A DNA stretch of 64,000 nt from Eledone cirrhosa (taxonomy: Eukaryota): NCBI GenBank assembly GCA_964016885.1, contig OZ024741.1, positions 59,272,001-59,336,000 on the forward strand. Reading direction: 5' to 3'. Below, piece after piece: positions 35,372 through 36,082 of this stretch; positions within the stretch are counted from its first letter, which is position 1; each line of letters begins with the position of its first letter. The notes below the pieces were generated by a model, which saw only the letters and a program-made list of their open reading frames with translations, was not told where the DNA came from and did no database searches. Made by a program: the position numbers and the translations under genes.

Positions 35372-36082
35372 TATCATGATAAATTAACGGAGGCATAGGC
35401 CCTCGTTATTCCCTGTAAATAATGTGCTCAAAGGAGAAGAGATCCTGAGCTCTTTAAAATACAATATGTTGAGAAGGTAACACACCAGAGAGAGGTATAC
35501 AGTGCGTTATCAATAATACAGGGAAAAAACCACCATTGTATTTTAAAGAGCTCAGGATCTCTTCTCCTTTGAGCACATTATTTACAGGGAATAACGAGGG
35601 CCTATGCCTCCGTTAATTTATCGTGATATTTTGCTCCTAATAACAGTCTTTCCTATCTCTGTTTGGTTGAGCACACTTCTCTGAATGGCTTTGGGCTGCC
35701 CTTTCTAGCAGTCCGTCTCTCAGAAGCCACTGGTTCACTGCCCCTAAACACGCTGTGACTTCTCTTTCCCATGTGTAGCTGGACAGTCAATTGTAAAATT
35801 ATCTTAGTGTTGTCTGAAATGTATAGCCTTACACACGCTGATGAACCGAGACTAGACCATTTCTTTCAACAAACTTTTTGGTGAAACATATCTTTGGATT
35901 TGTACGTGTGTTATATAGTTATAGAGGTATTTATTTACGCTTTAATTTATATTTTTAATTATCGTGTCTATAGTCTGCCTTTCATAGGTTATAGATTCCA
36001 TACACTGGTGGTTTTTTCCTTGTATTATTGATAACGCACTATATATCTCTCTCTGGTGTGTTACCTTCTCAACATATTGTAT
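35372..36082 (+). mobile_element. 541-bp hammerhead-containing monomer (35535-36082) preceded by an inverted segment spanning the monomer end-start junction
   Basis: The reverse complement of 35372-35535 matches 36005-36082 joined to 35535-35626. (TA)n on both sides. Confidence 0.85.
35831..35911 (+). ncRNA. Type I hammerhead ribozyme
   Basis: ACACACG-CTGATGA-ACCGAGA..TTTTGGT-GAA-ACA..TGT-A^CGTGTGT, with 7-bp stem I and GUA triplet. Confidence 0.9.

Follow-up and report, generated by a model that had tools for sequence, protein, structure and literature searches.

A two-armed insertion of a 541-nt hammerhead repeat into (TA)n in Eledone cirrhosa, likely made by Penelope-like element enzymes acting on a periodic RNA

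Our analysis of a 64-kb window of the Eledone cirrhosa genome (the whole stretch of 64,000 nucleotides in which positions are given here) identified a two-armed insertion of a 541-nt hammerhead repeat into a (TA)n microsatellite. We propose, at a probability of roughly 0.6, that it arose through the RT and endonuclease of a Penelope-like element (PLE) working in trans on a periodic RNA, and we favour a circular monomer over a linear tandem as the form of this RNA. The insertion at 35371-36082 is one back-to-back two-armed copy that, by itself, is ordinary for its family.

For the description of this copy, positions in the unit are numbered from u1 = 35535 on the plus strand, and u548 corresponds to u7. 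The plus-strand arm, 35535-36082, is 548 nt long, which is one 541-nt period plus 7 nt, and this period is borne out by arrays at other loci. When the leader was compared with the unit by BLAST, the reverse complement of 35371-35465 matched u1-95 (35535-35629) at 94 of 95 positions (E 4e-46), and that of 35459-35541 matched u466-548 (36000-36082) at 79 of 83 (E 9e-36). The two leader pieces have the 7-nt ATTGTAT in common, and the minus strand therefore reads as the unit end fused to the unit start, an end-to-start junction that the plus arm lacks. The crossing of this junction by an inverted leader, which the preliminary description had reported, is thus real. The structure lies where it had been placed, with the leader running over 35371-35541 instead of 35372-35535 and its pieces corresponding to 36000-36082 and 35535-35629. 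The accompanying picture of a single monomer bounded by ATTGTAT and preceded by an inverted leader has to be given up: the left ATTGTAT is the overlap of two arms and no true element end, and the whole is one two-armed insertion whose short arm bears the fixed tail end of the family. Given that one tail-bearing (T) arm and one no-tail (N) arm form the commonest layout in the family (104 of 157 pattern-picked insertions), the leader is the T arm, and the supposed monomer is an N arm that is one unit long by chance. The T and N arms differ at five positions by BLAST, yet three minor alleles are common to both. Since the insertion sits inside a (TA)n microsatellite, in a 3.0-Gb host genome that is rich in (TA)n, a target duplication is not readable. 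The features are collected in Table 1.

Table 1. Parts of the two-armed insertion, its flanks and the neighbouring PLE in the window
Feature	Position	Strand	Remarks
Tail-bearing (T) arm, 171 nt	35371..35541	-	u466-541, then u1-95 of the next period; 3' end at 35371 facing the left (TA)n; from BLAST; ends as in 1043 exact genome matches into TA
88-nt tail (u8-95)	35371..35458	-	between the two fixed end sites, putative reverse-transcription start sites; interpretation following PMC11167929
No-tail (N) arm, 548 nt	35535..36082	+	one complete 541-nt period and 7 nt more; its 3' end, at 36082, faces the right-hand (TA)n; other copies end alike
Head-to-head arm junction	35535..35541		7-nt overlap, 6 of 7 letters fit both arms; probable microhomology join
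Left (TA)n target flank	35340..35370		read from the sequence
Right (TA)n target flank	36083..36416		read from the sequence
Type I hammerhead ribozyme motif	35832..35910	+	read from the sequence; predicted cut after 35904 (u370)
5'-truncated autonomous PLE, separate from the insertion	33310..35310	-	RT and GIY-YIG frame 33907-35313; 40-nt tail ending at 33310

The unit belongs to an abundant family. A search of the animal's own genome with the unit gave at least 145 matches from the 40 scored of 2888 candidates, with about 96-97% identity for full units, and showed that units also stand head to tail, in arrays that repeat every 541 nt and contain as many as four complete units. By exact pattern, 1043 ends at u95 run into TA, as do 162 ends at u548 (one variant), and the 3' half of the hammerhead has 377 exact matches in the genome; the copy number of this retrozyme family is above 1000. 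The exact patterns for internal continuation (22 matches) and for the unit junction (54) carry minor alleles of the 35371-36082 copy and are therefore not comparable with the end counts, so they were left out of the comparisons. The unit is non-coding, with a GC content of 38%, and the longest stop-free stretch in a natural four-unit array is 48 codons in sense and 87 in antisense. Each unit carries a hammerhead, the tandem units are dispersed and lack a coding frame, no LTR was seen, and transcription was observed in one run. By sequence and transcription, the family fits the definition of a metazoan non-LTR retrozyme (PMC7229834), with cleavage and circles as predictions, and its earlier identification as a hammerhead retrozyme was right.

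The hammerhead itself was read from the sequence. Stem I pairs CACACG (35832-35837) with CGTGTG (35905-35910), the core consists of CUGAUGA (35838-35844), GAAA (35883-35886) and the GUA triplet (35902-35904), and stems II and III are ACC/GGT and CATATC/GATTTG. The pair 10.1-11.1 of a hammerhead is usually G-C. Here it is A-U, and it is A.C in 19 of 36 older copies; the motif, previously given as canonical at 35831-35911, is accordingly a near-canonical type I hammerhead at 35832-35910. Its core is near-invariant across 146 young insertions, and in older copies (36 pieces) the core mismatch is 5.2%, against 5-24% per 30-nt bin across the unit. Rfam returned no match in the 64-kb window at the gathering level, where this hammerhead goes undetected, and at E values up to 10 it returned only microRNA-like matches from the palindrome and microsatellites together with a weak Hammerhead_1 match at 33121-33170. 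In the minimum-energy single-strand fold, stem I forms and the core does not (z -0.87), and the circular fold of the 541-nt monomer scored weakly (z -2.1 on 40 shuffles). Elsewhere in the window, a simple scan gave type I hammerhead-like motifs at about 52719-52763 (+), 63604 (-) and 49310 (-). The plus-strand motif at 33121-33170, with its CUUGAAAA core and its weak Rfam match (20 bits, E 0.23), is probably the end of another PLE.

The unit is also present in RNA, as seen in one sample and in contigs that carry neither strand nor ends. In run X4, one contig (depth 3072) leaves out a 3655-nt GT..AG intron that belongs to a ribosomal protein S3A gene and through which run X1 reads straight at a depth of about 17. 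Because the X4 contig is spliced, X4 was taken as RNA, the kind of run being deduced and not on record. Contigs of X4 cover 30 of 30 bins of the element, and three of these contigs have depths of 103-134 versus 2-4 for intronic pieces. None spans the cut site, or the junction between units, with 31 letters, so these contigs are silent on circularity, and the unit RNA could be read-through within a host transcript. The dominant RNA variant carries at u230 a letter seen in one of 139 genomic pieces, on another haplotype, and the RNA sample differs from the DNA runs. Within the S3A intron itself lies a very high-copy repeat (L273:2620-3080) with very high contig depth in both runs.

To describe how copies end, we parsed 210 loci: 50 were best matches or arrays, 70 had been drawn from the 1043 matches with a tail, and 90 from the 162 without one. 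In all, 230 insertions were read at these loci, of which 206 are unique, and 157 were both pattern-picked and uncut by the locus edge. Among these 157, 38 are one-armed (some with a second arm too short to call) and 119 multi-armed; in 104 of the latter the arms diverge, one ending as T and the other as N, two pair T with T, none pairs N with N, and 13 are arranged otherwise. The 3' ends are fixed at two sites that run into (TA)n, namely u95 (T, with the tail) and, 88 nt earlier, u548 = u7 (N); the 5' ends are scattered over the unit. When run on these other copies, the check that the preliminary description had called for, whether copies are circular permutations of the unit, showed that they are not free permutations, as the 5' ends alone vary. 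TA-rich sequence follows 260 of the 269 arm ends, and, since one end per locus had been picked for TA, it is relevant that loci not so picked show the same TA-rich ends. The usual head-to-head junction among 110 arm pairs is an overlap of a few nucleotides. The 5' ends are modestly over-represented at u361-380 (16 stops, a rate of 0.12 versus 0.03-0.09 in neighbouring bins). Run-off at the hammerhead cut was considered as the cause; most of these stops lie at u376-380 on a TATATA stretch that offers microhomology, and they are not decisive.

According to published descriptions, PLE insertions consist of partial tandems together with an inverted copy truncated at its 5' end; a tail of 30-40 bp is present at just one of the two ends, and the insertions are biased towards (TA)n (PMC8557442, PMC3846280). 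The present family has two fixed 3' ends, a tail at one end, an inverted 5'-truncated arm, partial tandems and a (TA)n target. Its copies end like PLEs, and it is therefore likely that PLEs move it.

The autonomous PLE next to the insertion provides a comparison within the same genome. Its frame contains RVT_1 and GIY-YIG domains, a minimal hammerhead core lies near 33480-33510, and it is 98% identical to other copies of a family with a period of 3169 nt and 2132 candidates in the genome; a PDB sequence search with its protein gave no hits. This family has both T and N end types, a 40-nt tail and partial tandems, and by our reading 10 of 12 independent multi-arm insertions are T+N, including short tailed arms opposite long untailed ones, the very arrangement of the 35371-36082 copy. 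Many of its long arms start at period positions 200-267, perhaps near a transcript start. The 541-nt unit has no RT and GIY-YIG frame of the autonomous kind, the one at 33907-35313 being part of this neighbour, a different element.

Based on these observations, we propose the following course of events. The PLE endonuclease would nick both strands of an AT-rich target; one target 3' end would prime cDNA at u95 and the other at u7/u548, and both polymerases would travel in the same direction along the RNA. The two cDNA 3' ends would then be joined through a microhomology of a few bases, and repair would fill in the rest. In the 35371-36082 copy, the u95-primed cDNA would have stopped after 171 nt, past the u7 site, and the other after 548 nt. 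A purified PLE protein does cut and extend both target strands, its RT starts at two internal RNA sites, and the PLE tail is the stretch between these start sites (PMC11167929). The least secure steps concern the template: source arrays may be transcribed and cut by the hammerhead to monomers of 541 nt, which would then be closed into circles by ligation, and an arm that exceeds one unit may arise by running round such a circle.

A template that was circular or concatemeric had been deduced earlier from the crossed junction. A periodic template is indeed required, and arrays reach four units, but the junction singles out no circle: the autonomous 3169-nt PLE family shows the same crossing, which thus indicates a periodic template and not by itself a circle. 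The same holds for T+N pairing, which this PLE also shows. The support for a circle lies in family-wide statistics, not in the 35371-36082 copy, and we consider a circle the probable template of the family. Arms run through the predicted cut site in 112 of 269 cases, although the hammerhead core is conserved, and we count this for the circle. After removal of three duplicates from 113 T+N pairs, 110 remained, 92 pattern-picked and 18 best-match. Among the 92, break points were phase-matched within 10 nt at a length offset of +88 in 14 pairs (4.3 expected) and at -453 in seven (1.35 expected), and 71 pairs were not phase-matched within this distance. At +629 none of the 92 was matched (0.43 expected), and two of the 18 best-match pairs were within 20 nt. 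By our reasoning, two polymerases moving in the same direction on one 541-nt circle can meet only at +88 or -453. Moreover, the stop of the T arm falls 11-60 nt before that of the N arm in 15 cases versus 8.5 expected (p 0.013), and beyond it in seven versus 7.3, as if one polymerase trails the other. A strict chase without overtaking on a monomer circle is, however, broken by 34 of the 92 pairs (25 above, 9 below). In the neighbouring PLE family, phase matching was absent among about 10 pairs, all picked for long arms and hence a weak control. We suggest, tentatively and with the odds somewhat against it, that the family preserves the traces of two PLE polymerases at work at once on one circular RNA, whose collisions left the +88 and -453 matches. 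If true, such a record would amount to genomic proof that the circles of animal retrozymes serve as template for transposition and that they are mobilised by PLE enzymes.

The sequence relations within insertions point to a single template for each insertion and bear on the same question. Across 146 young insertions, divergence within an insertion is 1.2% both between tandem units (280/23240) and between opposite arms (251/20284), as against 2.5% from one insertion to another. For diagnostic alleles, tandem units were concordant in 131 of 145 comparisons and opposite arms in 85 of 99, versus 11% between insertions. Rare variants occur in every piece of their own insertion in 29 cases, in some pieces in eight and in one piece in 239, where chance sharing amounts to 0.24%. 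Where an insertion holds at least two full units, the units are identical at 19 marker sites in 12 of 16 insertions and differ in four; 83 units make up 35 haplotypes. We count these haplotypes, common to the units of one insertion, in favour of a circle. In L019/L020 the main arm shares private variants that are absent from the other arm, and in L139 variants alternate; such non-uniform arrays count against the circle and suggest that units were duplicated or converted later or that the template was multimeric. Among 16 pairs of insertions with at least two rare variants in common, the variant was present in some units only in 27 of 29 cells, a figure that leans against uniformity but comes with no null and may include recurrent mutation.

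The strongest competitor is a linear read-through tandem transcript with uncut hammerheads, on which a PLE would prime twice, at u95 and u7, and beside which any circles would be by-products. The autonomous PLE shows this geometry too, partial tandems included, a PLE in vitro used mainly uncleaved RNA as its substrate (PMC11167929), and uniform units would also be expected from young source arrays. The pairs that break the strict chase, the existence of non-uniform arrays and a hammerhead that lacks the G10.1-C11.1 pair likewise speak for it. However, by our reasoning a linear template should give about equal numbers of matches at -453 and +629, and we found seven and none among the 92 pairs. 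The 29 rare variants in every piece, versus eight in some, would need a one-unit bottleneck followed by re-multimerisation, and the hammerhead core is conserved across old subfamilies. We therefore regard a linear tandem RNA as possible but doubtful, and a circular monomer as the better account of the template.

Fold-back of the cDNA, in which self-priming copies the second arm from the first, has been proposed for Penelope palindromes (PMC3846280) and agrees with several of our observations. Phase-matched palindromic junctions are in excess, the arm-length differences that it forbids are somewhat fewer than in shuffles (37 vs 46.4, p 0.009), and the arms of one insertion have a common haplotype. 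Under such copying the second arm must lie within the first, a rule that 37 of the 92 pairs violate, and in the 35371-36082 copy each arm holds a sequence order absent from the other, which refutes fold-back here. As a general explanation it is improbable, and it may account for a minority of copies.

Another reading would reduce the unit to the pLTR, or terminal repeat, of some autonomous PLE, for which the neighbour at 33310-35310 would be a candidate. The unit lies 60 nt from the PLE reading frame, PLE pLTRs carry hammerheads (PMC8557442), and frog retrozymes are related to pLTRs (bioRxiv 10.64898/2026.07.22.740005). Our results make this very improbable. The period closes on itself at 541 nt with no sense stop-free stretch above 48 codons, and 56 single-arm copies have no upstream body in common. 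The neighbouring PLE has different ends and a hammerhead of its own, and between it and the unit lie a (TA)n tract and part of a third repeat. At its other loci the unit was found in 0 of 29, with one weak 57-nt AT-rich match. Our own proposal of a PLE acting in trans has against it that no autonomous partner emerged, either at these 29 loci or among 30 GIY-YIG loci (from 150 scored of 10595 candidates), where the only signals were weak AT-rich likeness and one locus with a 68-nt unit-end fragment. RT fragments at five other retrozyme loci lie hundreds of bases away from the arms.

Several further elements came to light in this search. The 30 GIY-YIG loci (L241-L270) contain at least five distinct PLE-like families, many ending in (TA)n. 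In the window, a plus-strand frame at 37804-38166 includes a GIY-YIG-like stretch (LVYQC...YYIGATG) and is likely a fragment of another PLE family. The 33-nt piece at 35307-35340 (+) belongs to a second abundant (TA)n-targeting repeat, with longer copies in L100, L107, L163, L194 and L270. This repeat has two ends about 95-100 nt apart, inverted arms and a hammerhead-like stretch with CAGAAGA for CUGANGA, and it is possibly another PLE-moved non-coding family.

Finally, an assembly fold-back artefact or two unrelated adjacent insertions would be hardly credible: assembly is difficult where inverted repeats lie in (TA)n (PMC8557442) and (TA)n tracts in this genome gather several elements, but the arms differ at five positions while having three minor alleles in common, and the same architecture recurs at 104 loci with differing break points.

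Three known systems invite comparison. The Chlamys non-autonomous PLE derivatives, such as MRC1, are likewise non-coding, pLTR-forming and multicopy head-to-tail, and are attributed to PLE machinery (PMC8557442). In the available text of that study, these derivatives are as a rule similar in their 3' ends to an autonomous family, and hammerheads are missing from most elements of Chlamys, whereas the Eledone unit has a hammerhead and no partner in the loci examined.

The likeness to metazoan non-LTR retrozymes is closer (Cervera and de la Pena 2020, PMC7229834; PMC7761336; Li, Clavereau and Pollet 2026). As far as the available text of these papers goes, they have much in common with the Eledone family, whose unit has a GC content of 38%: the tandem units are non-coding, each contains one type I hammerhead that includes helix III, no LTR is seen, monomers to multimers are dispersed in hundreds to thousands of copies, PLEs occur in the same genome, and the units are transcribed. 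The 541-nt unit is longer than the 150-450 nt of one account (PMC7229834) and falls inside the 51-972 nt of another (bioRxiv 10.64898/2026.07.22.740005). For published retrozymes, self-cleavage and circles have been demonstrated, whereas the Eledone family is known here from its sequence. Just one of nine frog retrozyme dimers cut itself in vitro (bioRxiv 10.64898/2026.07.22.740005), which weighs against a cleaved and circularised template. The Eledone family stands apart from the accounts in the retrozyme papers, whose available text does not describe insertion ends, by having (TA)n targets, a second arm that is inverted, and two fixed end sites with a tail of 88 nt. In the part of PMC7761336 available to us, the mover of animal retrozymes and the circle as template are stated as open, the repeats having no motif that indicates a partner, and the link to PLEs has so far consisted of co-occurrence and pLTR likeness (PMC7229834; bioRxiv 10.64898/2026.07.22.740005). 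In a literature search that covered main texts, largely of open-access journals, we found no description of PLE-type ends for a retrozyme.

With endonuclease-bearing PLEs (Craig et al. 2021, PMC8557442; Arkhipova et al. 2013, PMC3846280; Frangieh et al. 2024, PMC11167929), the family shares partial tandems, an inverted 5'-truncated arm, a tail at one end, (TA)n targets and two end sites. It differs, by the available accounts, in a unit without a reading frame, a tail of 88 nt versus 30-40 nt and a full hammerhead versus the minimal pLTR form, and the unit is unlike the pLTR of any PLE family examined in this genome. The family carries the PLE footprint at more than 100 examined loci, and u95 and u7 are exact predicted start sites for the published in vitro PLE assay (PMC11167929). 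Elements of this class and insertions of this geometry have both been described before, and their combination has been proposed; what this family adds is insertion-level evidence for the hitherto hypothetical mobilisation of animal retrozymes by PLEs.
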